51,157 bases of DNA. Source: a virus. Taxonomy: Duplodnaviria > Heunggongvirae > Uroviricota > Caudoviricetes. The notes beneath the pieces are model-generated. The model was not told the origin of the DNA, made no database searches, and saw nothing but the letters and a program-made list of their open reading frames with translations. Shown here in pieces: positions 1 to 45,600 of the stretch. The DNA lies in the IMG/VR virus record IMGVR_UViG_2925877141_000001. One strand, given 5' to 3'. Numbering within the stretch: position 1 is the first letter of the stretch; every line of letters begins with the position of its first letter. The position numbers were made by a program, and so were the translations under genes.

Positions 1-756
1 ATGCTTAAACAGCATTTAGAACCCATAGAAAAACGAGGTGTCCTTGAAACACTTCGCCGCATCATATCCCGCCTGAATGAAATTTTCCGCTATGCAGCAA
101 CAGAAGAACTCATAGAATTCAACCCGGCAGACAACCTGGGGCAACGGTTCAGCAAGCCAAAAAAACAGAATATGCCAGCATTACCCCCTTCCGAACTCCC
201 TCGCTTCTTGGTTGCTCTAAACAATGCTTCTATCCGTTTGGAAACAAGGCTACTGATTGAGTGGCAACTTCTCACATGGGTTCGCCCAGGTGAAGCTGTT
301 CGCACAAGATGGTCAGATATTGATATTGAAACTGGCATGTGGAACATCCCGGCGGAGTTTATGAAAATGAAGAAGCCTCACAAAGTTCCACTGAGCAAAG
401 AAGCTTTGCGAGTTTTGGATTTAATGAAAGTCATCAGCGGGCATAGAGAGTGGGTGTTCCCCAGTATCAAAGCTCCACTCAATCACATGCATGAACAAAC
501 AGCTAATGCGGCCATAATCCGTATGGGTTTCGGAGGTGAGCTTGTAGCTCACGGTATGCGATCCATTGCTAGAACGGCTGCTGAGGAGTCTGGCAAGTTT
601 AGGACTGATGTCTTAGAAGCCGCCCTTGCCCACTCGAAGAAAGATGAAATAATTGCAGCCTACAATCGTGCAGAGTATCTCACTGAACGGGTGGTTCTCA
701 TGCAATGGTGGAGTGACTATGTTTCGTCTCAAAAATGCAAAGTTATTGCCGCATAA
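1..756 (+). CDS. Tyrosine integrase (P4/CP4-57-like), C-terminal 251 aa; 5' end outside window
   Basis: ORF open from window edge to TAA at 754-756; translation has integrase catalytic-domain hallmarks (VRPGEAVRTRW, AHGMRSIARTAA, AAYNRAEYLTER). Confidence 0.8.
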   Translation: MLKQHLEPIEKRGVLETLRRIISRLNEIFRYAATEELIEFNPADNLGQRFSKPKKQNMPALPPSELPRFLVALNNASIRLETRLLIEWQLLTWVRPGEAVRTRWSDIDIETGMWNIPAEFMKMKKPHKVPLSKEALRVLDLMKVISGHREWVFPSIKAPLNHMHEQTANAAIIRMGFGGELVAHGMRSIARTAAEESGKFRTDVLEAALAHSKKDEIIAAYNRAEYLTERVVLMQWWSDYVSSQKCKVIAA

Positions 757-818
757 CTCTCCCATGATGGATTAACTATCTTGATTTAGTTAAAGAATTA
801 ATAATCACACCATTAACC

Positions 819-868
819 TATGTGGACTAAGCATAGCCATTTACAAATGGGGACATTGAGTCCACATA
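819..868. repeat. 10-bp perfect inverted repeat (tATGTGGACT ... AGTCCACATa) with 30-bp spacer upstream of serine-recombinase operon
   Basis: Arms at 819-828 and 859-868 read directly; sits in AT-rich leader 170 bp upstream of the 1039 start. Confidence 0.6.
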
Positions 869-1038
869 ACGAAAGCTGTCGGTCATATCAGCTAAATAAT
901 TCACATCTCTTCTCGATTATCATACACCTCGAAGATCTACCAAATTCGCTCTAATCAATGATAAAACAGTTGAATTCGGTTAAAATTTGATCAATTTTAT
1001 CCTCTACATTGTATTGAATCATCCATGAGGTTTCGTGC

Positions 1039-2595
1039 ATGGCTAGCGAAAATGACAAAAATCATAGAGTTAGGGTCGCGCAGTACTTGAGGATGTCTAC
1101 CGACCATCAGCAATATTCTTTACATAATCAGTCCGAATATATCAAAGATTATGCTGAAAAGAACAATATGGAAATCGCTTATACCTACGATGATGCAGGT
1201 AAGAGCGGAGTCAGTATCGTAGGCAGGCATTCTTTGCAGCAGTTACTTAGCGATGTAGAACAAAAGAAAATAGATATACAGGCTGTATTATTTTATGATG
1301 TGAGCCGTTTTGGTCGTTTTCAAAATAGTGATGAAGCGGCATATTATTCCTTTCTATTTGAGAGAAATGGTGTAGATCTTATATATTGTTCCGAACCTAT
1401 ACCCACTAAAGATTTCCCTTTAGAGTCCTCTGTTATACTGAATATAAAAAGATCTAGTGCTGCATATCACAGCAGGAATTTATCTGAAAAGGTATTTATA
1501 GGGCAAGTAAATTTAATAAAGCTTGGTTATCATCAAGGCGGTATGGCTGGTTATGGGCTGAGACGTCTTTTAGTAGACGAAAATGGCATAGCTAAAGAAA
1601 TATTGAGTTTCCGCAAAAGAAAGAGTATTCAAACAGATAGGGTAATATTAATTCCGGGACCAAAAAATGAAATAAAAATTGTAAATAGAATATATGATCT
1701 CTTTATAGATAATAACGTCCCAGAATTCATTATTGCTGAGAGATTAAATGAACAGAACATACCTGCAGAAAATGGAACATTATGGACTCGTGCAAAAATA
1801 CATCAAATTTTGACAAATGAAAAATATATTGGAAACAACATATATAACAAAACCTCATCTAAATTAAAAAGTAGGCTTGTAAAAAACCCCAAACATGAAT
1901 GGGTTAGATGTGACAAGGCATATAAACCTATTATTTCAAAGAAAAAATACAATAAAGCTCAAGAAATAATTCAGCTCCGATCCATTCATTTGACTAATGA
2001 AGATCTATTAGAAAAACTAAAACAAAAATTAGAATCTAATGGAAAACTATCAGGCTTTATCATTGATGAAGATGATACAGGCCCTTCATCTTCTGTTTAT
2101 AGAACCCGATTTGGTGGTCTTTTAAGAGCATATACTTTGATTGGTTATAAGCCAGAACATGATTACAGCTATCTCAAAATAAATGAAGCACTAAGATCAT
2201 TTCACTCAGAGATAATTGAGGATTTTAAGGGTGAAATTTTAAAAAGTAACTGTCATATAGACGAGTATAAATATGCCCCAATGCTTTACATCAATGATGA
2301 GTTTTTAATTTCCGTCCTTGTTACTAAATGCATACATATGAAATCAGGTAAACTTAGATGGAAAGTCCGGTTTGATAACTCACAGAAAGCAGACATAACA
2401 ATTGTTATACGAATGAATTCACAAAATATTTCACCTCTTGATTTTTATATCATACCAAAGATTGAAAACGAATATAATAAAATGTGCATGACGGAAACAA
2501 ACAACATTCGATTAGATCTCTATAGATTTGATAATCTTGATAAACTTCTACAAATTATTACTCGCATGAAAGTGAGGGAACTATATGCTGCCTGA
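1039..2595 (+). CDS. Large serine recombinase-like protein (resolvase catalytic domain + recombinase domain)
   Basis: N-terminal YLRMSTDHQ motif (serine recombinase nucleophile context) and a later recombinase-type segment (HQILTNEKYIGNNIYNK); no clear Cys-rich zinc ribbon; very AT-rich; GAGG upstream of ATG. Confidence 0.7.
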   Translation: MASENDKNHRVRVAQYLRMSTDHQQYSLHNQSEYIKDYAEKNNMEIAYTYDDAGKSGVSIVGRHSLQQLLSDVEQKKIDIQAVLFYDVSRFGRFQNSDEAAYYSFLFERNGVDLIYCSEPIPTKDFPLESSVILNIKRSSAAYHSRNLSEKVFIGQVNLIKLGYHQGGMAGYGLRRLLVDENGIAKEILSFRKRKSIQTDRVILIPGPKNEIKIVNRIYDLFIDNNVPEFIIAERLNEQNIPAENGTLWTRAKIHQILTNEKYIGNNIYNKTSSKLKSRLVKNPKHEWVRCDKAYKPIISKKKYNKAQEIIQLRSIHLTNEDLLEKLKQKLESNGKLSGFIIDEDDTGPSSSVYRTRFGGLLRAYTLIGYKPEHDYSYLKINEALRSFHSEIIEDFKGEILKSNCHIDEYKYAPMLYINDEFLISVLVTKCIHMKSGKLRWKVRFDNSQKADITIVIRMNSQNISPLDFYIIPKIENEYNKMCMTETNNIRLDLYRFDNLDKLLQIITRMKVRELYAA

Positions 2596-3481
2596 AAAAA
2601 ATGAATTCCCAATAATTCAAATTGAGATTGCAAAAATAAAATTTCTTAACCCACGAACAAGAAATAAGTTAGTGCATGAAGAAATAAAGGAAAGCATAAA
2701 AAAAAGAGGATTAAGCAAGCCTATAAGCGTAAGAGCTATTGATGAAGGCGATTTCAAATATGCTTTAATTTGTGGTCAAGGGAGAATAGAGGCTCTCGTT
2801 GCATTAGGTGAAACTATTATTCCAGCAATTATAAGAGATGTATCAGAAGAAGATGCTTACGTTATGAGTTTAGTTGAAAACATTGCAAGGAGAAGACCAC
2901 GTTCTAATGAGTTATTACAGGTGATTAAAGACATGAAAATCAGAGGACTTTCAGACTCCGAAATAAGTGAGATTACTGGATATTCATCGAACTGGGTGAG
3001 CAGTATTAATATGCTACTTGATAAGGGAGAGCATAAACTTCTCTCAGCAGTCGAACGGGGTAATTTGCCTCTGTATCTCGCAGTGCAATTTGCAAGATGT
3101 GAAACTGAGGAAGCACAAGATATTCTTACCGAAGCATATGATAAAAAATTAATAAAAAGTCGGGACATTATAAAGATAAAACACATTCTAAATCAAAGAA
3201 CAGTTGGGAATAAAGGTGCAAAAGCAGCCGGATTTTATTATCACAAACCATCAAAAAGGATGACTGCAGAGGAGTTGATTGAGCTTTATGAAAATAGTAT
3301 CGCTGAACATAAATCTGTTTATAACAACTCAAAATTCATAAAAACCAACCTACTAATAGTAAATGAGATTTTTAACATCATAATGATGAATAAAAGCTTT
3401 CAACATATACTTGAACAAGAGAATCTTTCAGAACTACCATCTCAGATATTAACCCCAGTAAACAAAGAGGTATTAAAATGA
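2585..3481 (+). CDS. ParB/Srx-fold N-terminal domain + HTH protein (ParB-like 1)
   Basis: Overlaps upstream gene by 11 bp; ParB-box-like GQGRIEAL motif followed by HTH-like segment (GLSDSEISEITGYSSNWVSSI). Confidence 0.6.
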   Translation: MLPEKNEFPIIQIEIAKIKFLNPRTRNKLVHEEIKESIKKRGLSKPISVRAIDEGDFKYALICGQGRIEALVALGETIIPAIIRDVSEEDAYVMSLVENIARRRPRSNELLQVIKDMKIRGLSDSEISEITGYSSNWVSSINMLLDKGEHKLLSAVERGNLPLYLAVQFARCETEEAQDILTEAYDKKLIKSRDIIKIKHILNQRTVGNKGAKAAGFYYHKPSKRMTAEELIELYENSIAEHKSVYNNSKFIKTNLLIVNEIFNIIMMNKSFQHILEQENLSELPSQILTPVNKEVLK

Positions 3482-4374
3482 TTCAGATACGTTTTGGCGA
3501 TAATTTTATTTACCTGGAAACTAATAAGTTAATTCCATCTAAGGAATTATTAGAAAACGTAAAGCGAAGCCATAAATATCATCAAATAGTTACCTCTATC
3601 GAAAGCTTAGGTATTATTGAACCAATAATAGTATTCTATGACAAAGATAAAGATGTCACTAAGATACTTGATGGCCATTTAAGGGTTGAGGCTTTAAAAG
3701 ACTTAGGTATAGAAAAAGCTCCATGTATACTTTCGAGCATAGATGATGCTTTCACTCCTAACAAACAAGTGAATCATATAAATGTAGTTGAAGAACATAG
3801 AATGATAATTAAGTCTCTGGCAAAAGTATCAATTGAAAAACTTAGTGCTGCTTTGGGCATATCTGTTGATGCCATAAAAGATAAAGCGAATGTGATGAAC
3901 GGCATAGATCCAAGTGTAATTGCGAAACTTTCTGATAAACCTATACCTAAGGCTACATTTGACATTTTGAGGAAAATGAAGCCAATTCGCCAAATTGAAG
4001 CAGTCGGTACAATGATTAATTTTGATAATTATAGTAAAAAATTTGCAATGAGCATCTTGGATGCAACACCGGCATCGATGATAGTAAATAAAGGGAAAAA
4101 CACTCCCTATAAAAAGGACATAAAAAAAACCATACTTCGTCTGGAACAAGAAATGGCAACAACTTCGGAAGAAACGAAAAAGCTTCAAACCGAGTATGGT
4201 TCAGATATGTTGAAATTCGTTATAATCCAGTCATATATTAATAAATTACTTGGCAATTCTAAAGTTCTTCATTGGTTCTTAGAAAACGAGGTTGATTATC
4301 TTAATGAGTTAAAAAGAATTTCTAGAATAAATTCTTTGGATGATAAGACTCTTACTGAAAACAGCAAGTCATAG
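3478..4374 (+). CDS. ParB/Srx-fold N-terminal domain + HTH protein (ParB-like 2, paralog)
   Basis: ATGA stop/start overlap with upstream gene; DGHLRVEALKDLG motif and HTH-like segment (SIEKLSAALGISVDAIK). Confidence 0.6.
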   Translation: MIQIRFGDNFIYLETNKLIPSKELLENVKRSHKYHQIVTSIESLGIIEPIIVFYDKDKDVTKILDGHLRVEALKDLGIEKAPCILSSIDDAFTPNKQVNHINVVEEHRMIIKSLAKVSIEKLSAALGISVDAIKDKANVMNGIDPSVIAKLSDKPIPKATFDILRKMKPIRQIEAVGTMINFDNYSKKFAMSILDATPASMIVNKGKNTPYKKDIKKTILRLEQEMATTSEETKKLQTEYGSDMLKFVIIQSYINKLLGNSKVLHWFLENEVDYLNELKRISRINSLDDKTLTENSKS

Positions 4375-4688
4375 TCATGTTTTATATAGCCTAAATAAAC
4401 CAAGAAGTATACTTACACAACGACCTTCACGCCGAAGAAGCTGTCAGATACGCCAGCAACCAAAGCATTACGTTTAAGTGTCAGTCATTGATACGAAGGG
4501 ATAACTGCGTATCAGCAGCCGGACATTGAGTCGAATAAAGGCTGGTAGAGAGGGACAGTTCTGTGTCACCGGGAGATTCGTCAGAAACATCAGCGGCAGA
4601 ACAGATGAACCAGCAATTGGTAGTGCACAGAAAACTCTCCAGTATTTAATTATTCAACTTAACACTAAAAAAAATCATGGATTTGCCC

Positions 4689-5528
4689 CTATATTTCCAG
4701 ACATCTGTTATCACTTAACCCATTACAAGCCCGCTGCCGCAGATATTCCCGTGGCGAGCGATAACCCAGCGCACTATGCGGATGCCATTCGTTATAATGC
4801 TCGAACGCCTCTGCAAGGTTCTTTGCTGCCGTTAACCCGTCTGGTTTGGGCATGATACTGATGTAGTCACGCTTTATCGTTTTCACGAAGCTCTCTGCTA
4901 TTCCGTTACTCTCCGGACTCCGCACCGCCGTGTTCTTCGGTTCAAGTCCCAACATCCGGGCGAACTGGCGTGTTTCATTAGCCCGGTAGCATGAACCATT
5001 ATCCGTCAGCCACTCCACTGGAGACGACGGAAGATCGTTGCCGAAGCGGCGTTCCACCGCTCCCAGCATGACGTCCTGTACTGTTTCACTGTTGAAGCCG
5101 CCGGTAGTGACCGCCCAGTGCAGTGCCTCACGATCACAGCAGTCCAGCGCGAACGTGACACGCAGTCTCTCTCCGTTATCACAGCAGAACTCGAACCCGT
5201 CAGAGCACCATCGCTGATTGCTTTCTTTCACGGCCACTCTGCCTGTATGTGCCCGTTTCGATGGCGGTACAGCAGGTTTTCGCTCAAGCAACAGCGCATT
5301 CTGGCGCATGATCCGGTAAACACGTTTGGCATTGATCGCAGGCATACCATCAAGTTCTGCCTGTCTGCGAAGCAGCGCCCATACCCGACGATAACCATAC
5401 GTGGGCAGCTCTCCGATAACATGGTGTATACGGAGAAGCACATCCGTATCATCAGTGTGACGACTGCGGCGGCCATCCATCCAGTCATCGGTTCGTCTGA
5501 GAATGACGTGCAACTGCGCACGCGACAC
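4689..5528 (-). CDS. insD: IS2 orfB (InsD) reading frame, N-terminus apparently disrupted
   Basis: Translation matches InsD from ...[15 protein letters not shown] to ...NRCLEI; canonical upstream start ([13 protein letters not shown]) is not in frame here. Confidence 0.7.
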
Positions 5529-5916
5529 CCGGAGACAACGGCTGACTAAGCTTACTCCCCATCCCGGGCAATAAGGGCGCGTGCGCTATCCACTTTTTTG
5601 CCCGTCCATATTCAACGGCTTCTTTGAGGAGTTCATTTTCCATCGTTTTCTTGCCGAGCAGGCGCTGGAGTTCTTTAATCTGCTTCATGGCGGCAGCAAG
5701 TTCAGAGGCAGGAACAACCTGTTCTCCGGCGGCGACAGCAGTAAGACTTCCTTCCTGGTATTGCTTACGCCAGAGAAATAACTGGCTGGCTGCTACACCA
5801 TGTTGCCGGGCAACGAGGGAGACCGTCATCCCCGGTTCAAAGCTCTGCTGAACAATTGCGATCTTTTCCTGTGTGGTACGCCGTCTGCGTTTCTCCGGCC
5901 CTAAGACATCAATCAT
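5485..5916 (-). CDS. insC: IS2 orfA (InsC), C-terminally extended relative to canonical 121 aa
   Basis: Starts [26 protein letters not shown]; ends ...[11 protein letters not shown]... instead of the remembered ...LLPGDGE stop, suggesting a 1-bp deletion in a G-run. Confidence 0.7.
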
Positions 5917-6007
5917 CTGTTCTCCAATGACTAGTCTAAAAACTAGTATTAAGACTATCACTTATTTAAGTGATATTGGTTGTCTGGAGATTCAGGGGGC
6001 CAGTCTA

Positions 6008-6161
6008 ACAGACTAGCAGTGCGTTCCCTGCCGATGATGTCCTGACCAGTTTTTTCAGTCCGGACCTCCTGCCACGATTTTACGTTGAAGTGGTAACCCT
6101 GAGCACGCAGTTCTTCAGTCAGGCGTGGTGCACCGTAACGCTGTTATTGCTGGGTAAGATC
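6008..6161 (-). mobile_element. IS3-family remnant (internal orfB fragment joined to a terminal inverted repeat), interrupted by IS2
   Basis: 6072-6150 is similar to IS3 interior 7426-7497; 6145-6161 ATTGCTGGGTAAGATCA equals the IS3 terminus seen at 8025-8041. Confidence 0.5.
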
Positions 6162-6412
6162 AAAAAACTTTCAGGCAGCTAAGGAAAGTTGAACCAGACA
6201 TTAGATGAAATATTTCAACCAATTACAGCACCAATTCAGTCACTGCCAGCCCACCAAATAAATCAAGGGGTTACATGAAAACGTAGCCCCTTTTTCTTTG
6301 GTAGTGACACTAAAATGGATGTAGTGTGAAGAATAATCCCGTTTACTCAATCAATAATACATATTGTTTCAATCTACGTTATTATCTCTTTGTAAAAATT
6401 GCCATTTATTAA

Positions 6413-6783
6413 TCATTGAAAACTGCTTTTAGAACTTGATACAACGGGACTAGTCACAACAGGACTATTCTCAACGGGATCATCCTCAGAGGAACTATCA
6501 TCAAAGTCATCATCCATAAATAAAATATCATCGAATGGTGCCACGCCCGTGATGAGTTTTATTTTATTATTACGATCAGTCAATACTCCACTTAAACCGT
6601 TTTCGCTCACAGGTTTTAATGATTTTTCATTACTCTTGTTGTAAGCAGGCGCATTAAAAATACACGGAGTATCAACATCAAACAATGACGTTCCCCAGTT
6701 CACATATTGAATATCATAGTTACTGAAGTTCTGTCCAGAAAAGAAGCACCCCTTAAAATCCAATCCACGTAAATTATATAAAC
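6413..6783 (-). pseudogene. 3' fragment of an unknown gene (pentapeptide-repeat-like N-terminal part, acidic Ser/Asp-rich tail), 5' end removed by IS3
   Basis: ORF runs without a start into the IS3 terminus at 6784; AT-rich. Confidence 0.4.
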
Positions 6784-6813
6784 TGATCCTACCCACGTAA
6801 TATGGACACAGGC

Positions 6814-7680
6814 CTAAGCGAGGTTCTTGTTTTCAAATTGTTCCGGACTGAGGCCGCCACACCAACTGTGCCGCCGCCACCGATTGTAATCACATTCGAT
6901 ATAATTAAACACCGTTGCCCGCATTATTTCCCGGCTGATAAAGTGTTCTCCATGGATACATTCCACTTTCAGCGAATGAAAGAAGCTTTCCACGCAGGCA
7001 TTATCGTAGCAGCAACCTTTTGCGCTCATACTTCCACGCAGATTATGCCGCTTCAGTTGCGCCTGATAATCTGCTGAACAGTACTGGCCTCCACGGTCCG
7101 TGTGAACGATAACGTTCCGGGGCCTCTTACGCCGCCACAGCGCCATCTGCAGGGCATCGCAGGCCAGTTGCGCCGTCATGCGTGGCGACATTGACCAGCC
7201 AATAACGGCACGTGACCACAGGTCAATGACCACTGCCAGATACAGCCAGCCTTCATCTGTACGTAAGTACGTGATGTCTCCTGCCCACTTCTGGTTCGGG
7301 CCACTGGCGTAAAAATCCTGCTCCAACAGATTTTCTGACACAGGCAGGCCGTGTGCGCGGTAGCTGACCGGGCTGAACTTCCGGGAGGCCTTTGCCCTCA
7401 GTCCCTGACGGCGCAGGCTTGCCGCCACGGTTTTTACGTTAAAGGGGTAACCCTGAGCACGCAGTTCATCCGTCAGGCGTGGGGCACCGTAACGCTGTTT
7501 TGACCGGGTAAAAGCCGCGAGGACAACGCTGTCGCAGTGTTGGCGGAACTGCTGACGCGTGCTTATCCTTGTCCGCCGCTGACACCACGTATACCAGCCG
7601 CTGCGGGCCACCCGGAGCACGCGGCACATTGCTTTGATGCTGAACTCAGCCTGATGTTTTTCAATAAAGACATACTTCAT
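6814..7680 (-). CDS. insF: IS3 transposase orfB (InsF)
   Basis: 288-aa translation [22 protein letters not shown]...EQFENKNLA recognised as IS3 InsF with DDE region. Confidence 0.85.
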
Positions 7681-7976
7681 TTCAGGCGCTTCGCGAAGTA
7701 TGTCGCGGCCTTTTGGAGGATAGCCAGCTCTTCATCCCGTTCTGCCAGCTGGCGTTTGAGACGTGCAATCTCGGTAGACATCTCCAGTTCACGTTCAGAA
7801 GACGTCTGCTGATTTTGCTGTTTACTGCGCCAGTTGTAGAGTTGTGATTCATACAGGCTGAGTTCACGGGCTGCGGCAGTAACACCGATGCGTTCAGCAA
7901 GCTTCAGGGCTTCACTGCGAAATTCAGGCGAATGCTGTTTACGGGGTTTTTTACTGGTTGATACTGTTTTTGTCAT
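7677..7976 (-). CDS. insE: IS3 transposase orfA (InsE)
   Basis: [31 protein letters not shown]... recognised as IS3 InsE; overlaps orfB in the usual frameshift arrangement. Confidence 0.8.
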
Positions 7977-8041
7977 GTGAGTCACCTCTGACTGAGAGTT
8001 TACTCACTTAGCCGCGTGTCCACTATTGCTGGGTAAGATCA

Positions 8042-8237
8042 AGGTTCCTAAGCTCACCTTAGTTCGCTTTTTGGTCACAGGCACTGCATATCTGAAATAC
8101 CAATTTTTCTTCCCTCCCTTCGCCAGGGGAGCGATTCGCAACAGCAAACCATCGCCGTCAAAAAGGTTAACCTCTTTTTCGGCAGGTTTGGTGCTTTTGA
8201 TTTCAGTGTCAGTGAGCTTCTTAGCGATTTTGGCCAT
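8042..8237 (-). pseudogene. P4/CP4-57-type integrase N-terminal fragment (~65 aa) truncated by IS3
   Basis: MAKIAKKLTDTEIKSTKPAEKEVNLFDGDGLLLRIAPLAKGGKKNWYFRYAVPVTKKRTK looks like an integrase arm-binding N-terminus; reading frame runs into the IS3 end at 8041; N-terminus lies ~170 bp from the att repeat. Confidence 0.65.
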
Positions 8238-8403
8238 GTTTGGGACCCTCGATTTTAGGACCCATCTTCGTGGGTCCCATTCAGGGTGCCATAACTCGTA
8301 GTTCTCAGCAATTCTCACTAGACTACAATAGACGTAAAAAAGCCCGCAGAGCTTGTGCTGTGCGGGCTTAGTAGACTTTACTGAACTTCAGTACATCAAT
8401 ATT

Positions 8404-8430
8404 TGGTGGAGCTGGCGGGAGTTGAACCCG
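8404..8430. repeat. 27-bp direct repeat of the ssrA 3' end (att core; prophage attL)
   Basis: TGGTGGAGCTGGCGGGAGTTGAACCCG is identical to 50756-50782 at the 3' end of ssrA. Confidence 0.85.
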
Positions 8431-8508
8431 AGTCCGTATTTTTATAATTAGCTGAAATAAAACGATTAATACTAACCATTTTATTCTGCGGATCTTTTGC
8501 GGCTCCTT

Positions 8509-9408
8509 TTATGTCTGGATGTGGTCGTCAACACATCCTCTTTTAAATACAGGCGCTTTTACCTTAGTTGGATCATCTGTTTTAAAGATTTTCAATCGTT
8601 CACTGAAGAACATTACCTCAGATCCTTTGTACCGATCTTGAGCACTGTAGTTTATTCCATATACTAATGAGGATGTCTTATACATAGCTTGGATCTCAGG
8701 AGTGTTATCGTAAGAAACAATCCAAGGCGTTTTAATATTATTCTGTACGACTTTTGCAACCCTAACATGATCATCATGATCATAATGGTTGATATATAAG
8801 CCTTTACCTTTTATGTAATAAGGTGGATCCAAATAGGTTAATGAGTTTTGTGGCAATTGAATAACTATTTTTTTTATGAAATCAATTGCATCCATGTTAT
8901 ATAAATCTATTCTGTGACGATTTTCTGATATTCTATGGATTCGAGAAATCAAATCACTCTTATTATAGCGAGCGTCAAGCTTCCATTTCCCTTCTTGATT
9001 TTTACCGCCAATTACACCACCTTTTAATATTCCAGAACGATTTGTTCTATTGAGAAAAAAGGTTGAGAAACCAATTGTTAAAAGATCATGGTCTTTAGGA
9101 TTATTAATTATATCTTTCTGCCTAAACCATTCATCCATTGTAACTTCTGTTCTTTCAACTAAAGAACATAATTGATCTGCATGATTTAATACACTGTGCC
9201 AAAAAGCATAAACAGAAATATTAATATCATTAAGGATGATTTTTTCAGCTGCATTTAGATGTAACAGTTTCAATGCTAAACCAGCACCCCCAGCATATGG
9301 TTCGGCATAATGTATAGGCGAAAGATTATTTTCTTCAATAATCCGAAGCATGAAATTTGCAAGCTTGCCTTTACCGCCAGGATAGCGAAGTGGGGTGTTA
9401 AAACGCAT
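8509..9408 (-). CDS. Dam-family (D12 class) N6-adenine DNA methyltransferase
   Basis: Motifs LRYPGGK, EPYAGGAG and DPPY in the translation; ATG at 9408; AT-rich. Confidence 0.8.
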   Translation of the reverse strand: MRFNTPLRYPGGKGKLANFMLRIIEENNLSPIHYAEPYAGGAGLALKLLHLNAAEKIILNDINISVYAFWHSVLNHADQLCSLVERTEVTMDEWFRQKDIINNPKDHDLLTIGFSTFFLNRTNRSGILKGGVIGGKNQEGKWKLDARYNKSDLISRIHRISENRHRIDLYNMDAIDFIKKIVIQLPQNSLTYLDPPYYIKGKGLYINHYDHDDHVRVAKVVQNNIKTPWIVSYDNTPEIQAMYKTSSLVYGINYSAQDRYKGSEVMFFSERLKIFKTDDPTKVKAPVFKRGCVDDHIQT

Positions 9409-9487: not shown

Positions 9488-11221
9488 TTAGTTATCTGAC
9501 AGATATGATGAGATGGTAGCAGAATCGACACCATGTCCACTTATCATAATAACTTTAAGACTCTTTATTAGTTCATTCTTGAAGCTATCCGATTGCACAG
9601 GATTTTTCTCGACCCAATATCGATATGGGTTATCTTTAACTCGTCCTTTGACTTGGTCCTGAAATTGAGTCGTATGTGCAAAATCTTTAAACAGTTTTCT
9701 CACTCTCCCGCCATGATTTTTGTTAACTTTTTTATAATTATCTATAAGGATTTTTAAATCAATCGGAGCGTTACCAATCTTTAGCGTTGTAATTATGTCT
9801 TTAGCTGTTTTCATAAAAACAGATTTTGTAAATTTATTTTTATTTTCCCAATATGCATCATCAGGTGGTAAATTATATAAAAACTCAAAAATCATTTGAT
9901 CTGGAGGTAAGGTGCTTGGAAGCAAACATAAGTTTTTTTCTTTTTTGGCTTTTTTTGCATTAGCACTGTTGTCGTGAACAACATCACCGTCTAAGACGAT
10001 CAAGCTTTTAGCTGTAAATTCTGGTATTTTTCTTGCCATTAAGTCAAGCATGGCAGAGCAGCTAATATTTATATTCCCTAATGGATTTAATATTTTATTT
10101 ATTTTTCGATCTGTTATCAATTGTTTGAAAAAGTCGAAACCTTCTTTGTCTTCAAAATATACATTTGCTTTTGGAAGACAAATGTCATCATTAATTTTTA
10201 CAGTTTCAACATGTAAATCAGCGTGGATATCTGTCCATGAAAGATTATTCTTTGTTTTAATATCTCCATATGTGTCTGTAAGATATATTGTTTTAAAGCT
10301 ATCACTATCTTGTTTTGAACGATTATAGATATCCTCTATTATTAATGGAGAGTGCGAGGTCATGATTATTTGCAGATCGTATTGTTTTGCTGCTTTAGTT
10401 AGAATATTAATTAACTCTAACTGTGCAGCAGGGAAAAGACCTGCATCGGCTTCATCAATTAACAATATTCCGCCATGATAATCAGAATAAGTTTCCTTCA
10501 ATCTTTTAAATGAAAAAATTGCTTGGATTAATTGTCCAACATTATCTTCACCAACAGATACTGATTGGTGATCATAATTGTCACCATGGACAACCATTGA
10601 ATCGATAATACCTTTTGTTGCTGTTACTGAGCTTCCATTGTTTTTTAGTAAGAGTTGGTTACTCATCATTCTGATTTCATCAGAATTTTCATTGATGTAC
10701 TGAACATCCCGTGTTGAGTAATTAGTCCTTAATGTAATAGGAAGAAGTCGTGCTAAGCTTAAAAAAATAACAGGATGAGTAACGTTTCTACTTTGGTTTT
10801 TTTCCGGTATTGAATCATTTCCCCTGACTACAGGCCTTGATTTATCTCTGTCACTGTAGCTGTATAAACCTAATGTTAGTTTTTCAAGATGTTTGTTCGA
10901 TGCACCATCATAGACACTAATTTTGACGTCCATTGAACCAGGAACATCAAATTGTTCTGAAAGCCTAAAATGTTCGCTGAAAGCTGACTTGAAGCTGCCA
11001 TTTGTTAATGTTTTATATTGTGTTAAATCAGTCTCAGGTTTTTTGGTAAAGTCCTTTGTAAAGCTAAATATTTGGGCGATAATGCCAAGAATTGTGGATT
11101 TAGATGTGCCATTTTTACCACAAATAACAGTTAGGCGAGAACCAAACTCGATGTTTATATTTTTCAGTCCGCGAAACTTCACAACATTTATATTTTTTAG
11201 TTTGGTAATTTGATTTGCCAT
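9488..11221 (-). CDS. ABC-type (AAA_15/OLD-like) ATPase with putative C-terminal Toprim-like nuclease region
   Basis: Walker A GKNGTSKST, Walker B LLIDEADAGLF, H-loop-like TSHSP; C-terminal FEDKEG and LIVLDGD segments resemble Toprim Glu and DxD motifs (unverified); alternative ATG at 11272. Confidence 0.65.
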   Translation of the reverse strand: MANQITKLKNINVVKFRGLKNINIEFGSRLTVICGKNGTSKSTILGIIAQIFSFTKDFTKKPETDLTQYKTLTNGSFKSAFSEHFRLSEQFDVPGSMDVKISVYDGASNKHLEKLTLGLYSYSDRDKSRPVVRGNDSIPEKNQSRNVTHPVIFLSLARLLPITLRTNYSTRDVQYINENSDEIRMMSNQLLLKNNGSSVTATKGIIDSMVVHGDNYDHQSVSVGEDNVGQLIQAIFSFKRLKETYSDYHGGILLIDEADAGLFPAAQLELINILTKAAKQYDLQIIMTSHSPLIIEDIYNRSKQDSDSFKTIYLTDTYGDIKTKNNLSWTDIHADLHVETVKINDDICLPKANVYFEDKEGFDFFKQLITDRKINKILNPLGNINISCSAMLDLMARKIPEFTAKSLIVLDGDVVHDNSANAKKAKKEKNLCLLPSTLPPDQMIFEFLYNLPPDDAYWENKNKFTKSVFMKTAKDIITTLKIGNAPIDLKILIDNYKKVNKNHGGRVRKLFKDFAHTTQFQDQVKGRVKDNPYRYWVEKNPVQSDSFKNELIKSLKVIMISGHGVDSATISSYLSDN

Positions 11222-11237
11222 GTTTGTATCTTGCTCC

Positions 11238-11262
11238 GTAAAATGGCCACAAATTGTGGCCA
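11238..11262 (-). terminator. Hairpin immediately downstream of int (tI/sib-like position)
   Basis: Palindrome TGGCCACA-AAT-TGTGGCCA at 11244-11262 followed on the minus strand by TTTT. Confidence 0.45.
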
Positions 11263-11279
11263 ATAGTTTCATGCTTGGA

Positions 11280-18377: not shown

Positions 18378-18729
18378 ACAGTTTAACAACACACTACCGT
18401 CGCTCGCAACTGATTGCGCTTCCTGTACCGGGTGGAAAAGCGAAGGTGGAGTATTGCTATGCAGTTAATGTACCAGGTGACAGGGAAATTGTAACCCACA
18501 GCTTTGCTGAGTGGGCTGTGGGTGATTTCAACCGGCAGAAGGAGACAGTCCTTTGCGACAAGTTAACCGCTGGTTCAAAGATCACTACGGAGTGCCCGTC
18601 AGAGTCATTCGTTGGGAGCCGGAAACACAACGAGTTATCTACCTCCGCGAAGGCTATGAGCATGAGTGCTTCAGCCCGCTCGAACAGTTTCGTCGTAAAT
18701 TCAGGGAAATAGAGGTCGGTCATGAGCAC
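18374..18729 (+). other. Possibly frameshifted gene upstream of O
   Basis: Protein-like N-terminal half in the 18374 frame; protein-like C-terminal half ([56 protein letters not shown]) in another frame ending at 18729, overlapping the O start. Confidence 0.35.
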
Positions 18730-35644: not shown

Positions 35645-36036
35645 AACATACTGAACTCCGTGCAGCCGTACTGGATGCACTGGAGAAGCATGACACCGGG
35701 GCGACGCTTTTTGATGGTCGCCCCGCTGTTTTTGATGAGGAAGATTTTCCGGCAATTGCCGTTTATCTCACCGGCGCTGAATACACGGGCGAAGAGCTGG
35801 ACAGCGATACCTGGCAGGCGGAGCTGCATATTGAAGTTTTCCTGCCTGCTCAGGTGCCGGATTCAGAGCTGGATTCGTGGATGGAGTCCCGGATTTATCC
35901 GGTGATGAGCGATATCCCGGCGCTGTCAGATTTGATCACCAGTATGGTGGCCAGTGGCTATAACTACCGGCGCGACGATGATGCGGGCCTGTGGAGTTCA
36001 GCCGATCTGACGTATGTCATTACCTATGAAATGTGA
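35641..36036 (+). CDS. U: Tail terminator protein U
   Basis: [45 protein letters not shown]... recognised as lambda U. Confidence 0.9.
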
Positions 36037-36043
36037 GGACGCT

Positions 36044-37075
36044 ATGCCTGTACCAAATCCTACAATGCCGGTGAAAGGTGCCGGGACCACCCTGTTGGTT
36101 TATAAGGGGAGCGGTGACCCTTATGCGAATCCGCTTTCAGACGTTGACTGGTCGCGTCTGGCAAAAGTTAAAGACCTGACGCCCGGCGAACTGACCGCTG
36201 AGTCCTATGACGACAGCTATCTCGATGATGAAAATGCGGACTGGACTGCGACCGGGCAGGGGCAGAAATCTGCCGGAGATACCAGCTTCACGCTGGCGTG
36301 GATGCCCGGAGAGCAGGGGCAGCAGGCGCTGCTGGCGTGGTTTAATAAAGGGGATACCCGTGCCTATAAAATCCGCTTCCCGAACGGCACGGTCGATGTG
36401 TTCCGCGGCTGGGTCAGCAGTATCGGTAAGGCGGTGACGGCGAAGGAAGTGATCACCCGCACGGTGAAAGTCACCAACGTGGGACGTCCGTCGATGGCAG
36501 AAGATCGCAGCACGGTAACAGCGGCAACCGGCATGACCGTGACGCCTGCCAGCACTTCGGTGGTGAAAGGGCGGAGCATCACGCTGACCGTGGCATTCCA
36601 GCCGGAAGGCGCAACCGACAAGAGCTTCCGTGCGGTGTCTGCGGATAAAACAAAAGCCACCGTGTCGGTCAGTGGTATGACCATCACCGTGAAAGGTGTT
36701 GCTGCAGGCAAGGTCAACATTCCGGTTGTATCCGGTAATGGTGAACTTGCTGTGGTTGCAGGAATCACCGTCAGCCGCTGGCGCATTGAGCAGTGCAGCG
36801 AACTGAGCGCGGTGAGTGCCTCCTTTGTACTGTCCACGCCGACGGAAACGGATGGCGCTGTTTTTCCGGGACGTATCATGCTGGCCAACACCTGCACCTG
36901 GACCTATCGCGGTGACGAGTGCGGTTATAGCGGTCCGGCTGTCGCGGATGAATATGACCAGCCAACGTCCGATATCACGAAGGATAAATGCAGCAAATGC
37001 CTGAGCGGTTGTAAGTTCCGCAATAACGTCGGCAACTTTGGCGGCTTCCTTTCCATTAACAAACTTTCGCAGTAA
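36044..37075 (+). pseudogene. In-frame fusion of major tail protein V (N-terminal ~240 aa) to the C-terminal ~100 aa of tail-tip protein L
   Basis: [16 protein letters not shown]...VVAGITV (V-like) continues directly into [54 protein letters not shown]...FLSINKLSQ (L C-terminus); no G, T, H or M between U and K. Confidence 0.8.
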
Positions 37076-38423: not shown

Positions 38424-41400
38424 ATGGGTAAAGGCAGCAGTAAGGGGCATACCCCGCGCGAAGCGAAGGACAACCTGAAGTCCACGCAGCTGCTGAGTGT
38501 GATCGATGCTATCAGCGAAGGGCCGGTTGAAGGTCCGGTGGATGGATTAAAAAGCGTGCTGCTGAACAGTACGCCGGTGCTGGACAGTGAGGGGAATACC
38601 AATATATCCGGCGTCACGGTGGTGTTCCGGGCCGGTGAGCAGGAGCAGACACCGCCGGAGGGATTTGAATCCTCCGGCTCCGAGACGGTGCTGGGTACGG
38701 AAGTGAAATACGACACGCCGATCACCCGCACCATTACGTCGGCAAACATTGACCGTCTGCGCTTTACCTTCGGTGTGCAGGCACTGGTGGAAACCACCTC
38801 AAAGGGGGACAGGAATCCGTCGGAAGTTCGCCTGCTGGTTCAGATACAACGTAACGGTGGCTGGGTGACGGAAAAAGACATCACCATTAAGGGCAAAACC
38901 ACCTCGCAGTATCTGGCCTCGGTAGTGGTGGATAACCTGCCGCCGCGCCCGTTTAATATCCGGATGCGCAGGATGACGCCGGACAGCACCACAGACCAGC
39001 TGCAGAACAAAACGCTCTGGTCGTCATACACCGAAATCATCGATGTGAAACAGTGCTACCCGAACACGGCACTGGTCGGCGTGCAGGTGGATTCGGAGCA
39101 GTTCGGCAGCCAGCAGGTGAGCCGTAATTATCATCTTCGCGGGCGCATTCTGCAGGTGCCGTCGAACTATAACCCGCAGACGCGGCAATACAGCGGTATC
39201 TGGGACGGAACGTTTAAACCGGCATACAGCAACAACATGGCCTGGTGTCTGTGGGATATGCTGACCCATCCGCGCTACGGCATGGGGAAACGTCTTGGTG
39301 CGGCGGATGTGGATAAATGGGCGCTGTATGTCATCGGCCAGTACTGCGACCAGTCGGTGCCGGACGGCTTTGGCGGCACGGAGCCGCGCATCACCTGTAA
39401 TGCGTACCTGACCACACAGCGCAAGGCGTGGGATGTGCTCAGTGATTTCTGCTCGGCGATGCGCTGTATGCCGGTATGGAACGGGCAGACGCTGACGTTC
39501 GTGCAGGACCGACCATCAGATAAGGTGTGGACCTATAACCGCAGTAATGTGGTGATGCCGGATGATGGCGCGCCGTTCCGCTACAGCTTCAGCGCCCTGA
39601 AAGACCGCCATAATGCCGTTGAGGTGAACTGGATTGACCCGAACAACGGCTGGGAGACGGCGACAGAGCTTGTGGAGGATACGCAGGCCATTGCCCGTTA
39701 CGGTCGTAACGTCACGAAGATGGATGCCTTTGGCTGTACCAGCCGGGGGCAGGCACACCGCGCCGGGCTGTGGCTGATTAAAACGGAGCTGCTGGAAACG
39801 CAGACCGTGGATTTCAGCGTGGGTGCCGAAGGGCTTCGCCATGTGCCGGGTGATGTTATTGAAATCTGCGATGATGACTATGCGGGGATCAGCACCGGCG
39901 GGCGCGTGCTGGCGGTGAACAGCCAGACCCGGACGCTGACGCTCGACCGTGAAATCACGCTGCCATCCTCCGGTACCACGCTGATAAGCCTGGTTGACGG
40001 AAGTGGCAATCCGGTCAGCGTGGAGGTCCAGTCCATCACCGACGGCGTGAAGGTAAAAGTGAGCCGTGTTCCTGACGGCGTTGCCGGATACAGCGTATGG
40101 GGGCTGAAGCTGCCGACGCTGCGCCAGCGCCTGTTCCGCTGCGTGAGTATCCGTGAGAACGATGACGGCACGTATACCATCACCGCCGTGCAGCATGTAC
40201 CGGAAAAAGAGGCCATCGTGGATAACGGGGCGCACTTTGACGGCGACCAGAGCGGCACGGTGAATGGTGTCACGCCGCCAGCAGTGCAGCATCTGACCGC
40301 AGAAGTCACCGCAGACAGCGGGGAATACCAGGTGCTGGCCCGCTGGGACACGCCGAAGGTGGTGAAGGGCGTGAGCTTCCTGCTTCGCCTGACCGTGGCA
40401 GCGGATGACGGCAGTGAGCGGCTGGTCAGCACAGCCAGGACGACGGAAACCACATACCGCTTCACGCAACTGGCGCTGGGGAATTACAGGCTGACAGTCC
40501 GGGCGGTAAATGCGTGGGGACAGCAGGGCGATCCGGCATCGGTATCGTTCCGGATTGCCGCACCGGCAGCGCCGTCTCGGATTGAGCTGACGCCGGGCTA
40601 TTTTCAGATAACCGCCACGCCGCATCTTGCGGTTTATGATCCGACGGTACAGTTTGAGTTCTGGTTCTCGGAAAAGCGGATTGCGGATATCAGGCAGGTT
40701 GAAACCACAGCACGCTATCTTGGTACGGCGTTGTACTGGATAGCCGCCAGTATCAATATCAAACCGGGCCATAATTATTATTTTTACGTTCGCAGTGTGA
40801 ACACCGTTGGCAAATCGGCATTCGTGGAGGCTGTTGGTCAGCCGAGTGATGATGCATCCGGCTATCTGGATTTTTTCAAAGGCGAGATAGGGAAAACCCA
40901 TCTGGCTCAGGAGCTGTGGACGCAGATTGATAACGGTCAGCTTGCGCCTGACCTGGCTGAAATCAGGACATCCATTACGGATGTCAGCAATGAAATCACA
41001 CAGACCGTCAATAAGAAACTGGAAGACCAGAGTGCAGCGATCCAGCAGATACAGAAGGTTCAGGTTGATACAAATAATAACCTGAACAGCATGTGGGCTG
41101 TGAAGCTGCAGCAGATGCAGGACGGACGCCTTTATATTGCGGGTATCGGTGCCGGTATTGAGAATACGCCAGCAGGAATGCAGAGTCAGGTGCTGCTGGC
41201 GGCAGACAGGATTGCGATGATTAATCCTGCGAATGGCAACACAAAGCCGATGTTTGTTGGTCAGGGTGATCAGATATTCATGAACGACGTGTTCCTGAAA
41301 TATCTGACGGCTCCCACCATTACCAGCGGCGGTAATCCTCCTGCATTTTCCCTGACACCGGACGGGCGACTGACGGCGAAAAATGCGGATATCAGTGGCA

Positions 41401-41903
41401 GTGTGAATGCGAACGCCGGGACGCTCAACAATGTCACGATAAATGAAAACTGTCGGGTTCTGGGAAAACTGTCTGCGAACCAGATTGAAGGCGATCTCGT
41501 TAAAACAGTGGGCAAAGCTTTCCCCCGGGACTCCCGTGCACCGGAGCGGTGGCCATCAGGGACCATTACCGTCAGGGTTTATGACGATCAGCCGTTTGAC
41601 CGGCAGATTGTTATTCCCGCGGTGGCGTTTCGTGGCGCTAAACATGAGCGGGAGAATAACGATATTTATTCGTCATGCCGCCTGATAGTGAAGAAAAACG
41701 GTGCTGAAATTTATAACCGTACCGCGCTGGATAATACGCTGGTTTATACAGGTGTTATTGATATGCCTGCTGGTCGCGGTCACATGACGCTGGAGTTTTC
41801 GGTATCAGCGTGGCTGGTAAATGACTGGTATCCCACAGCCAGTATCAGTGATTTGCTGGTTGTGGTGATGAAGAAATCCACAGCAGGTATCACGATTAGC
41901 TGA
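38424..41903 (+). CDS. J: Tail tip / host-specificity protein J
   Basis: 1159-aa ORF starting [37 protein letters not shown]..., recognised as lambda J. Confidence 0.95.
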
Positions 41904-41971
41904 ATTTTCATAACCCATATGCGGGCGCCATTTCTGGCGCCTTTTTTATTGCAGAAAAGCGAGAGGTAATT

Positions 41972-42571
41972 ATGCGTAAAGTTTGTGCAGCCATTTTGTC
42001 CGCAGCCATCTGTCTGGCCGTATCCGGTGCGCCTGCATGGGCGTCTGAGCAGCAGGCCACACTGAGCGCAGGGTATCTTCATGCCCGTACGAACGCTCCC
42101 GGCAGCGATAATCTGAACGGGATTAACGTGAAATACCGTTATGAGTTTACGGACACGCTGGGGCTGATTACGTCATTCAGTTATGCCAACGCTGAAGATG
42201 AGCAAAAAACGCATTACAGCGATACCCGCTGGCATGAGGATTCCGTGCGTAACCGCTGGTTCAGCGTGATGGTGGGGCCGTCTGTGCGCGTGAATGAATG
42301 GTTCAGCGCGTATGCGATGGCGGGTGTGGCTTACAGCCGTGTGTCGACTTTCTCCGGGGATTATCTCCGCGTAACTGACAACAAGGGGAAAACGCACGAT
42401 GTGCTGACCGGAAGTGATGACGGTCGCCACAGCAACATGTCTCTGGCGTGGGGGGCTGGCGTGCAGTTTAACCCGACCGAATCCGTGGCCATTGATGTCG
42501 CTTATGAAGGCTCCGGCAGTGGCGACTGGCGCACTGACGGTTTCATCGTGGGTGTCGGTTATAAGTTCTGA
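41972..42571 (+). CDS. lom: Outer-membrane protein Lom
   Basis: MRKVCAAILSAAICLAVSGAPAWASE... with signal peptide and C-terminal ...GFIVGVGYKF, recognised as lambda Lom. Confidence 0.9.
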   Translation: MRKVCAAILSAAICLAVSGAPAWASEQQATLSAGYLHARTNAPGSDNLNGINVKYRYEFTDTLGLITSFSYANAEDEQKTHYSDTRWHEDSVRNRWFSVMVGPSVRVNEWFSAYAMAGVAYSRVSTFSGDYLRVTDNKGKTHDVLTGSDDGRHSNMSLAWGAGVQFNPTESVAIDVAYEGSGSGDWRTDGFIVGVGYKF

Positions 42572-42635
42572 TTAGCCAGGTAACACAGTGTTATGACAGC
42601 CCGCCGGTTCAGGCGGGCTTTTTTGTGGGGTGAAT

Positions 42636-45600
42636 ATGGCAGTAAAGATTTCAGGTGTACTGAAAGACGGCGCAGGTAAACCGGTACAGAACTGCACAAT
42701 CCAGCTGAAAGCAAAACGTAACAGCACCACGGTGGTGGCGAACACGGTGGCCTCAGAAAATCCGGATGAAGCCGGGCGTTACAGCATGGACGTTGAGTAC
42801 GGTCAGTACAGCGTTATTCTGTTGGTGGAAGGCTTCCCGCCATCGCATGCCGGGACCATCACCGTGTATGAAGACTCACAACCGGGTACGCTGAATGATT
42901 TTCTCGGTGCCATGACGGAGGATGATGTCCGTCCGGAGGCACTGCGCCGCTTTGAACTGATGGTGGAAGAGGTGGCGCGTAACGCGTCCGCAGTGGCGCA
43001 GAACACAGCAGCCGCGAAGAAGTCAGCCAGCGATGCCAGCACATCAGCCCGTGAGGCGGCAACCCATGCGACTGATGCTGCAGGCTCAGCACGTGCAGCC
43101 AGCACGTCAGCCGGACAGGCCGCGTCGTCGGCTCAGTCAGCGTCTTCCAGCGCAGGAACGGCATCAACAAAGGCCACTGAAGCATCAAAAAGTGCTGCCG
43201 CCGCAGAGTCTTCAAAAAGCGCGGCAGCCACCAGTGCCGGTGCAGCGAAAACGTCGGAAATGAATGCCGCAGCATCACAAAAATCTGCGGCCACATCTGC
43301 ATCCACCGCGACCACGAAAGCGTCAGAAGCTGCCACCTCAGCCCGGGATGCGTCGGCTTCAAAAGTGGCGGCAAAATCATCAGAAACGAGCGCTGCCTCG
43401 AGCGCCGGCAGTGCAGCTTCCTCGGCAACGGCAGCAGGAAATTCCGCGAAGGCCGCAAAAACGTCTGAGACGAATGCGGATAACAGCGCACAGGCGGCAG
43501 CAGACTCACAAACTGCATCGGCAAACTCCGCGACAGCAGCCAAAAAATCAGAAACCAACGCGAAAAATAGTGAGGCAGCAGCAAAGGTCAGCGAAACCAA
43601 CGCTAAAGCGTCAGAGAACAAGGCGAAAGAATATCTCGACAAGGTCGGGGGACTCGTCAGCCCGATGACGCAATACGATTGGCCCGTTGTTACTGGTAGT
43701 GAGCCTTTTTACATAAAGATCGCGAAACTTTCCGATCCCGGAAGCAAAGATTGCCATGTAACGCTAATGGTTACTAATGCCGGTAACTACGGCTCCCCTT
43801 ACGGAAACATTGACTTTATCGAGATCTCGGCGCGCGGTCTGCCTTCTTCGCTTACTGCGGATAATGTTTCTCGTCATCTGAGTATACGCCGCTTAGGGTC
43901 AACCGGGCTGACCGATAACAACCAGATGCGTTACGGCCTGGTTAAAGGTGACGGCTTTATTGAGGTTTGGGCATTCCAGGGTGCGTTTATTAACGACGCA
44001 AAGGTTGCGGTGCTGGCGCAGACAACACTAAACACAGAATTATACATTCCAGACGGATTTGTTAAGCAAACCGCCGCGCCTTCTGGATATATTGAAGGCA
44101 ACGTTGTAAGGATTTACGACCAGGTAAACAAGCCGACTAAAGCAGATTTGGGTCTTTCTAATGCTATGCTTACAGGCGCTTTCGGTCTTGGCGGTAGCGG
44201 GATATCAACAAACGGCAAGATGAGCGATGTAGAGATCTTAAAAGCTCTGCGTGACAAAGGTGGTCATTTCTGGCGCGGTGATAAGCCGACCGGAAGCACG
44301 GCGACCATTTATAGCCACGGTTCTGGTATATTCTCGCGGTGCGGCGATACGTGGTCAGCGATCAATATCGACTACTCAACCGCGAAGATTAAGATCTATG
44401 CCGGCAACGATGCCCGGCTTAACAACGGGACTTTTAGCGTCAATGAGCTATACGGCTCGGCAAACAAGCCGTCGAAATCGGATGTTGGACTTGGCAACGT
44501 AACGAACGATGCGCAGGTAAAAAAAACCGGCGATACAATGACCGGTGACTTGACAATCAAAAAAGGTACACCGTCAGTCTTCCTGCGGGCAGACAGTGGA
44601 GTCACCGCTTTGCGGTTTTATACTGGCGATAACACAGAGCGCGGCATAATCTATGCTGGTCCTAACACTGATTCGCTTGGCGAAGTTCGCATCAGGGCAA
44701 AGACAGCAGGGGGGACATCAGGAGGGGATCTTGTTGTTCGTCACGACGGGAGGGTTGAAGTCCGTGATCTCACAGTAGCGTATAAAATTAAAAGCAGAAC
44801 GATTGAGATTGCAAATACCGACACTGACTCATCGGCAACTACGCTAAGCATCTATGGAGTACAGCACACGCCGTTGGTTTTAACGCGTTCTGGTTCTTCT
44901 GAAAATGTGTCCATTGGGTTTAAGTTAGACAACATGAACCCAAAGTATCTTGGAATTGATACTAATGGGGATCTGGCTTTTGGTGAGAGTCCTGATCAGA
45001 AACAAAACAGCAAATTGATCACGCAAGCGAAACTCGACAAGGGATTAACGATTGGTGGTCAACTGGCTTTCAAAGGTACGACAGCGTTTTCAGCCGCTGC
45101 TACGTTCAGTGCCGGGATAGCAGGAGCCATCGAGCCTGAAAACATTGGCGACCAGAAGGTTGATCTTAACAACCTGACCATCAGGTCAGATGCCGGGGCG
45201 GTTAAATACTATAGTTGTCCATCCTCTGGAGGTGGTGCAAATATCACCAACAAGCCTGACGGTGTAACCGGTAACTTTTTGCTCCGTGTAGAGTCGACTC
45301 GCAAAGTTTCTGCTTCGGATTATGCGAACATGCAAACGCTGATCAGCAACGACACAAAACGTATATACGTTCGCTTTGTTGTTAATGGAAACTGGACAGC
45401 GTGGAGTCAGGTTGTTGTTTCCGGATGGAATCAGGATGTAACCGTCAGGTCGTTAACCTCGACGACTCCATCAAAATTAGGTGGCGGGCGGATTGATGTG
45501 CTTGGAAGTACGTCAGATTATGGCAGCATGAATTGTACCGTTCGTGGTGTTGATAGCACTGGAACCAATTCGGCGTGGTCGGTAGGCACATCAGAAAGCA

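Follow-up and report, generated by a model that had tools for sequence, protein, structure and literature searches.

An IS2 copy with one G missing from the orfA/orfB overlap in a degraded ssrA-linked island

The IS2 element and its surroundings

The window (the whole 51,157-nucleotide stretch of DNA analysed here) contains a degraded ssrA-linked island, with a split integrase, a recombinase, two ParB-like genes, an IS2 copy, a ypjCB fragment and an IS3 copy, in tandem with a lambdoid prophage of about 42 kb (~8437-50754) that lies at ssrA. The C-terminal piece of the island integrase is found at 1-756 on the plus strand, and the IS3 copy (6784-8041) separates the ypjCB fragment from the N-terminal piece (8042-8436, minus strand). 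EcPNK006, a relative discussed below, has another IS3, in inverted orientation, immediately upstream of where the window begins. An arrangement of integrase pieces and IS3 such as this would be left by an IS3-mediated inversion, and in another relative, 11A20CPO008, the order is uninverted. At 8404-8436 there is a partial copy of the ssrA 3' end, and the tmRNA gene ssrA itself lies at 50756-51118.

The closest relative of the prophage is that of E. coli MY1-8, at 99.4-99.7% identity. At ~36771-36778 the window lacks 4,152 bp of the MY1-8 prophage (40380-44531 of the MY1-8 comparison sequence), which hold the tail assembly chaperones G/T, the tape measure gene, the next tail gene and part of gene L; the remnant is a fused 353-aa ORF (36014-37075), and a tail-assembly defect of the prophage is probable. 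Its cargo, with gene names taken from the MY1-8 annotation, comprises a DNA cytosine methyltransferase (47803-49278), a type II restriction endonuclease (49313-50527) and a GIY-YIG protein (46665-47438) near ssrA, and a DNA adenine methylase (8509-9408) and an AAA ATPase (9488-11272) at the other end.

The IS2 copy, which is the subject of this analysis, reads on the minus strand from TAGACTGGCCCCCTGAATCTCCAGACAACC to GGGGCAAATCCA and is an ordinary IS2 of the IS3 family, IS2 subgroup (Table 1). Megablast places IS2 in 4,901 of 5,426 E. coli complete genomes, and the top matches cover the whole query, at 1331 bp for the record as compared with 1330 for the window, with an identity of 99.9% that amounts to one gap. 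We aligned the copy three-way with IS2A of K-12 (NC_000913 381260-382590, annotated insC1/insD1) and with a copy in NZ_CP025860, a top match that represents the commonest variant and is annotated as [quoted passage not shown] (WP_088895425.1). The window element is identical to the commonest IS2 at 1330 of 1331 positions, the sole difference being one missing G, and to IS2A at 1329 of 1331, where a substitution at IS2 606 is added to the missing G. The two ends form the imperfect repeats characteristic of IS2: aligned with each other, they show a one-base offset in a C-run, which is an extra G/C pair in the left repeat, and the left repeat of IS2 has been described as carrying one extra G/C pair and ending in TA-3' (PMC3219604). 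The slippery heptamer of IS2 is present as well, as are the N-terminal helix-turn-helix and DDE (rve) domains, with PF01527 in OrfA and the catalytic domain in the orfB body. Thus, in its two inverted repeats, its A6G heptamer and the domain content of OrfA and OrfB, the copy is like IS2A of K-12 MG1655. Unlike IS2A, it lacks one G at IS2 443-446 and has no 5-bp target duplication; its orfB is out of the -1 phase, its OrfA is longer and its frameshift product is shortened.

Table 1. Features of the IS2 copy, in window coordinates
Feature	Position	Strand	Basis
IS2 element (IS3 family), 1330 bp	4678..6007	-	99.9% identity, one gap, against thousands of 1331-bp IS2 copies
Left inverted repeat (IRL), starts TAGACTGGCCCCC, same as reference	5966..6007	-	Alignment
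Right inverted repeat (IRR), ends GGGGCAAATCCA-3', same as reference	4678..4718	-	Alignment
Flank on the IRR side, AATCA	4673..4677	.	Flank comparison; flank on the IRL side is ACAGA at 6008-6012
orfA (insC) frame, 143 aa instead of 121, HTH_Tnp_1 intact	5485..5916	-	Translation; Pfam PF01527, E = 3e-19
A6G (AAAAAAG) programmed -1 frameshift heptamer, intact	5593..5599 (IS2 409-415)	-	Sequence and coordinates; phase as in reference
G-run, GGG where canonical IS2 has GGGG (IS2 443-446)	5563..5565	-	Single gap placed here in alignments to five comparison sequences
-1 frame stub after the slip, 13 codons then TAA	5552..5593	-	Simulated -1 fusion
Stranded orfB (insD) body, +1 phase relative to orfA	4689..5585	-	ORF listing, Pfam, frame translation

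The element is not bounded by a 5-bp target-site duplication, the two flanks being AATCA and ACAGA. In relatives without IS2 (NT1F34, red-fox isolate) the site is uninterrupted, with AAAATCA running directly into CATATTT. On the IRL side (6008-6783), the window abuts a recombinase/ypjCB fragment that elsewhere is not adjacent to the ParB-side flank. IS2 here marks an old deletion or rearrangement junction, common to the five relatives described next and unrelated to the loss of the G.

Two of these relatives, EcPNK006 and M23917, match the first 8,436 bases of the window with two mismatches and one gap, the missing G; for three others, 11A20CPO008, 04A19CPO007 and Ec-U7, the match extends over 1-6783, and its only gap is again this G. 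The IS2 junctions are the same in all five genomes, the run is GGGG, and the element is annotated as intact with a programmed frameshift. The G loss is private to the window sequence. Because the relatives share the junctions, the rearrangement predates the G loss, and because they share the insertion with GGGG, the insertion is old and the loss either recent or artefactual. The window's own arrangement was not found in any RefSeq complete E. coli genome, where the best match covers 70% of the first 12 kb.

The missing base and the reading frames

Canonical IS2 reads CCCGGGGATGGGG where the window reads CCCGGGATGGGG. The missing base is in the orfA/orfB overlap, 28 nt downstream from the A6G heptamer. 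GGGG at IS2 443-446 is the consensus of more than 6,500 records, and the gap is a single deterministic difference from it, so that chance is not at issue. The initial annotation had proposed a one-base loss in this run, CCCGGG(G)ATGGGG, and alignment to reference IS2 finds that change and nothing else; across the junction the copy is not identical to functional IS2.

Two other ways of reading the difference were considered. The first, that the initial annotation had the canonical sequence wrong, is ruled out by the GGGG of the consensus. The second, that another change inside the element compensates for the first, is ruled out because nothing else differs from the commonest IS2.

Ribosomes that slip at A6G give IS2 its functional OrfAB, at low frequency (PMC3219604). 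The canonical orfA starts at IS2 92 and ends in LLPGDGE; the initial annotation had read the window's frame as running 22 codons beyond this stop, which is exact. Simulation of the -1 slip at A6G yields a 121-aa product in the window as compared with the 409-aa OrfAB of canonical IS2, and the -1 frame reads DGE just before its stop. The orfB body does not lie in the -1 phase from which slippage gives OrfAB. Translation likewise bears out the earlier remark that the InsD frame lacks its canonical N terminus, which is split between the -1 and +1 frames. The +1 frame is closed by a TAG right after A6G, and its earliest start codon is a GTG at 5528. The domains of the orfB body, HTH_21 (PF13276), rve (PF00665) and rve_3 (PF13683), are intact by Pfam. 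Since all domains are intact, only the linkage of the two halves is broken, and the wrong phase of orfB marks a defective member, not a different family. The view that the transposase fusion is disabled thus agrees with the simulated stub, as well as with the label "frameshifted" that PGAP gives to the same variant elsewhere. Whether the gap is a deletion or an error, the element as written encodes a broken transposase gene.

Distribution of the variant and the question of assembly error

Frameshifted IS copies are routine, and the GGG variant itself is already known, being flagged as a pseudogene in public annotation. It is rare. Matches to a 71-base query with the junction at its centre fell at 18,459 places in 6,539 E. 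coli records; the GGG form was exact over its full length in 11 of the 6,539 records, with 12 in the ≥99% band, and among 3,378 plasmid records it was exact in 8, with 10 in the ≥99% band. A control query, in which a G was deleted from the adjacent GGGG run, gave one full-length exact record and three in the ≥99% band. An exact-pattern scan for the 47-mer spanning the GGG junction, covering one genome per species, found none. The exact 143-aa OrfA product occurs in about 32 blocks of public assemblies, and among the ten places listed for it none is at the window's locus.

The copies with GGG are scattered. Three related strains that were assembled separately, MCJCHV-1, DS566-1 and DS566-2, carry it at one common locus; strains 201609, YZ3-11 and others have single copies. 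One assembly each of DH5alpha (CP045741) and JM109 (CP117962) has GGG in the same IS2 copy, which sits between an integrase and a phosphoethanolamine-transferase pseudogene; MG1655 is not among the exact GGG matches, and either common descent or a repeated error could account for the agreement of the two laboratory strains. PGAP calls the five GGG copies that we examined (MCJCHV-1, DH5alpha CP045741, 201609, JM109 CP117962 and YZ3-11) "frameshifted" ("IS3-like element IS2 family transposase"). These are full-length and have the same GGG in the same G-run as the window copy. Unlike it, they lie at other loci, several on other IS2 backgrounds and most with intact 5-bp duplications, whereas at the window's ssrA-island locus every other sequenced copy is intact.

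In four Shigella GenBank assemblies (CP026810, CP026824, CP026866 and CP026873), several IS2 copies per assembly have GGG. In seven of nine such copies the element has lost further single G/C bases as well (9C, 604C, 629G, 945G, 1259G). Many of the neighbouring genes are split. This pattern suggests systematic homopolymer under-calling in those assemblies, as error-prone long-read assemblies give.

The missing G could, then, be of either origin. The possibility that it is an artefact is a substantial one, although we hold it to be less probable than a real mutation: the true element would have GGGG and be a functional IS2, and a homopolymer under-call would have escaped polishing because the reads are ambiguous among IS2 copies. 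The base indeed belongs to a G/C homopolymer, the repeat around it is multi-copy and hard to polish, and all five orthologous copies have GGGG. Further, the same deletion is found at unrelated loci and in no fewer than three sequence backgrounds of IS2. It is also frequent in the Shigella assemblies, in the company of other single-base G/C-run deletions in IS2 and fragmented neighbouring genes, and is present in single assemblies of DH5alpha and JM109. Finally, it outnumbers the deletion in the neighbouring GGGG run by a factor of about 4-10 (11-12 records as compared with 1-3, of 6,539), which fits a context-specific bias. The 443-446 site is thus modestly over-represented, on small numbers, by mutational or sequencing bias.

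Nevertheless, several observations speak against an under-call. The window was compared with near relatives over about 51 kb (8.4 kb against EcPNK006 and 28.4 plus 14.4 kb against MY1-8, the latter with 163 substitutions), and no further internal indel was found. By this measure the assembly is not prone to indels, a mild argument for a real mutation. Moreover, at least one lineage carries GGG consistently, in three assemblies; the single locus shared by MCJCHV-1 and the DS566 strains shows this deletion to be heritable. Real decay of IS transposase genes also commonly takes the form of one-base losses. On this evidence we lean toward a real deletion, with modest confidence.

Consequences for the transposase and predicted behaviour of the copy

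Taken as a whole, the account that we prefer, and consider somewhat probable, is that of an ordinary IS2 with a real, strain-specific one-base deletion. The GGGG of an IS2 in the degraded ssrA-linked island would have become GGG in this strain, most simply by replication slippage. Synthesis of OrfAB by IS2 requires a -1 slip at A6G followed by translation into orfB. With the G missing, the -1 frame runs into a TAA after 13 codons, and the DDE frame is left in +1 phase, behind a TAG and with no start codon of its own. Only two short products would then be expected from the copy, the 143-aa OrfA variant and the 121-aa frameshift stub. Both keep the N-terminal helix-turn-helix and the coiled-coil region. 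In IS2, DNA binding by the helix-turn-helix has been assigned to the first 60 residues and a coiled-coil oligomerisation motif to residues 73-100 (PMC3219604), and OrfA deletion work cited in the same paper maps dimerisation to residues 58-105. All of these residues are upstream of the lesion.

It is conceivable that the GGG form is functional after all, either through another recoding event (a +1 or a net -2 shift between IS2 423 and 453) or through orfB made from the GTG at 5528 and acting with OrfA. The orfB body and both ends are intact, and several GGG copies elsewhere stand at different loci within perfect 5-bp target duplications, as if they could have moved after the change. But a mutation or error that arose after insertion, or mobilisation in trans, would account for those duplications just as well. 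Moreover, direct reading of the 30-nt interval reveals no recognisable +1 or second -1 slippery signal, and PGAP treats GGG copies as pseudogenes. An IS3-family transposase also requires its DDE domain to be fused to the DNA-binding region of OrfA (PMC3219604). We regard a functional GGG form as so improbable that it can nearly be neglected.

If, as we prefer, the copy is a defective IS2, it would be unable to make its own transposase and would be non-autonomous. Mobilisation by the OrfAB of another IS2 in the same cell could still occur in trans, since both ends are the same as those of the reference. Action in trans is supported by the background transposition of an orfAB-null construct, which was ascribed to chromosomal IS2 copies (PMC3219604). 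The copy may also still supply an OrfA-like regulator.

The closest experimental parallel is the engineered A7G form of IS2 studied by Lewis and co-workers, in which the two frames are fused (PMC3219604). As in that element, a one-base change in the orfA/orfB overlap shifts the ratio of OrfA to OrfAB. The direction is opposite: A7G makes OrfAB the main product, whereas the deletion in the window unlinks the frames and abolishes OrfAB.

A further reading concerns GGG copies in general. The recurrence of GGG on several backgrounds, together with its excess over the adjacent-run deletion, raises the idea of the GGGG run at IS2 443-446 as a favoured and perhaps reversible site of slippage, at which individual copies might switch from being autonomous to being OrfA-only and back, so that the G loss would be a recurrent natural self-limitation of IS2 and not random decay. 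We consider this very unlikely. Were it true, the OrfA-only copies would be producers of regulator that can be mobilised only in trans.

For annotation, the IS2 copy is best recorded as a frameshifted pseudogene, unable to move alone, unless the base is an error. GGGG to GGG at IS2 443-446 recurs in public assemblies, error-prone ones included, and a lone frameshift there warrants caution. In terms of genome dynamics, recombination can still use the copy as a patch of homology; the copy may also be mobilised in trans and provide OrfA-like protein.
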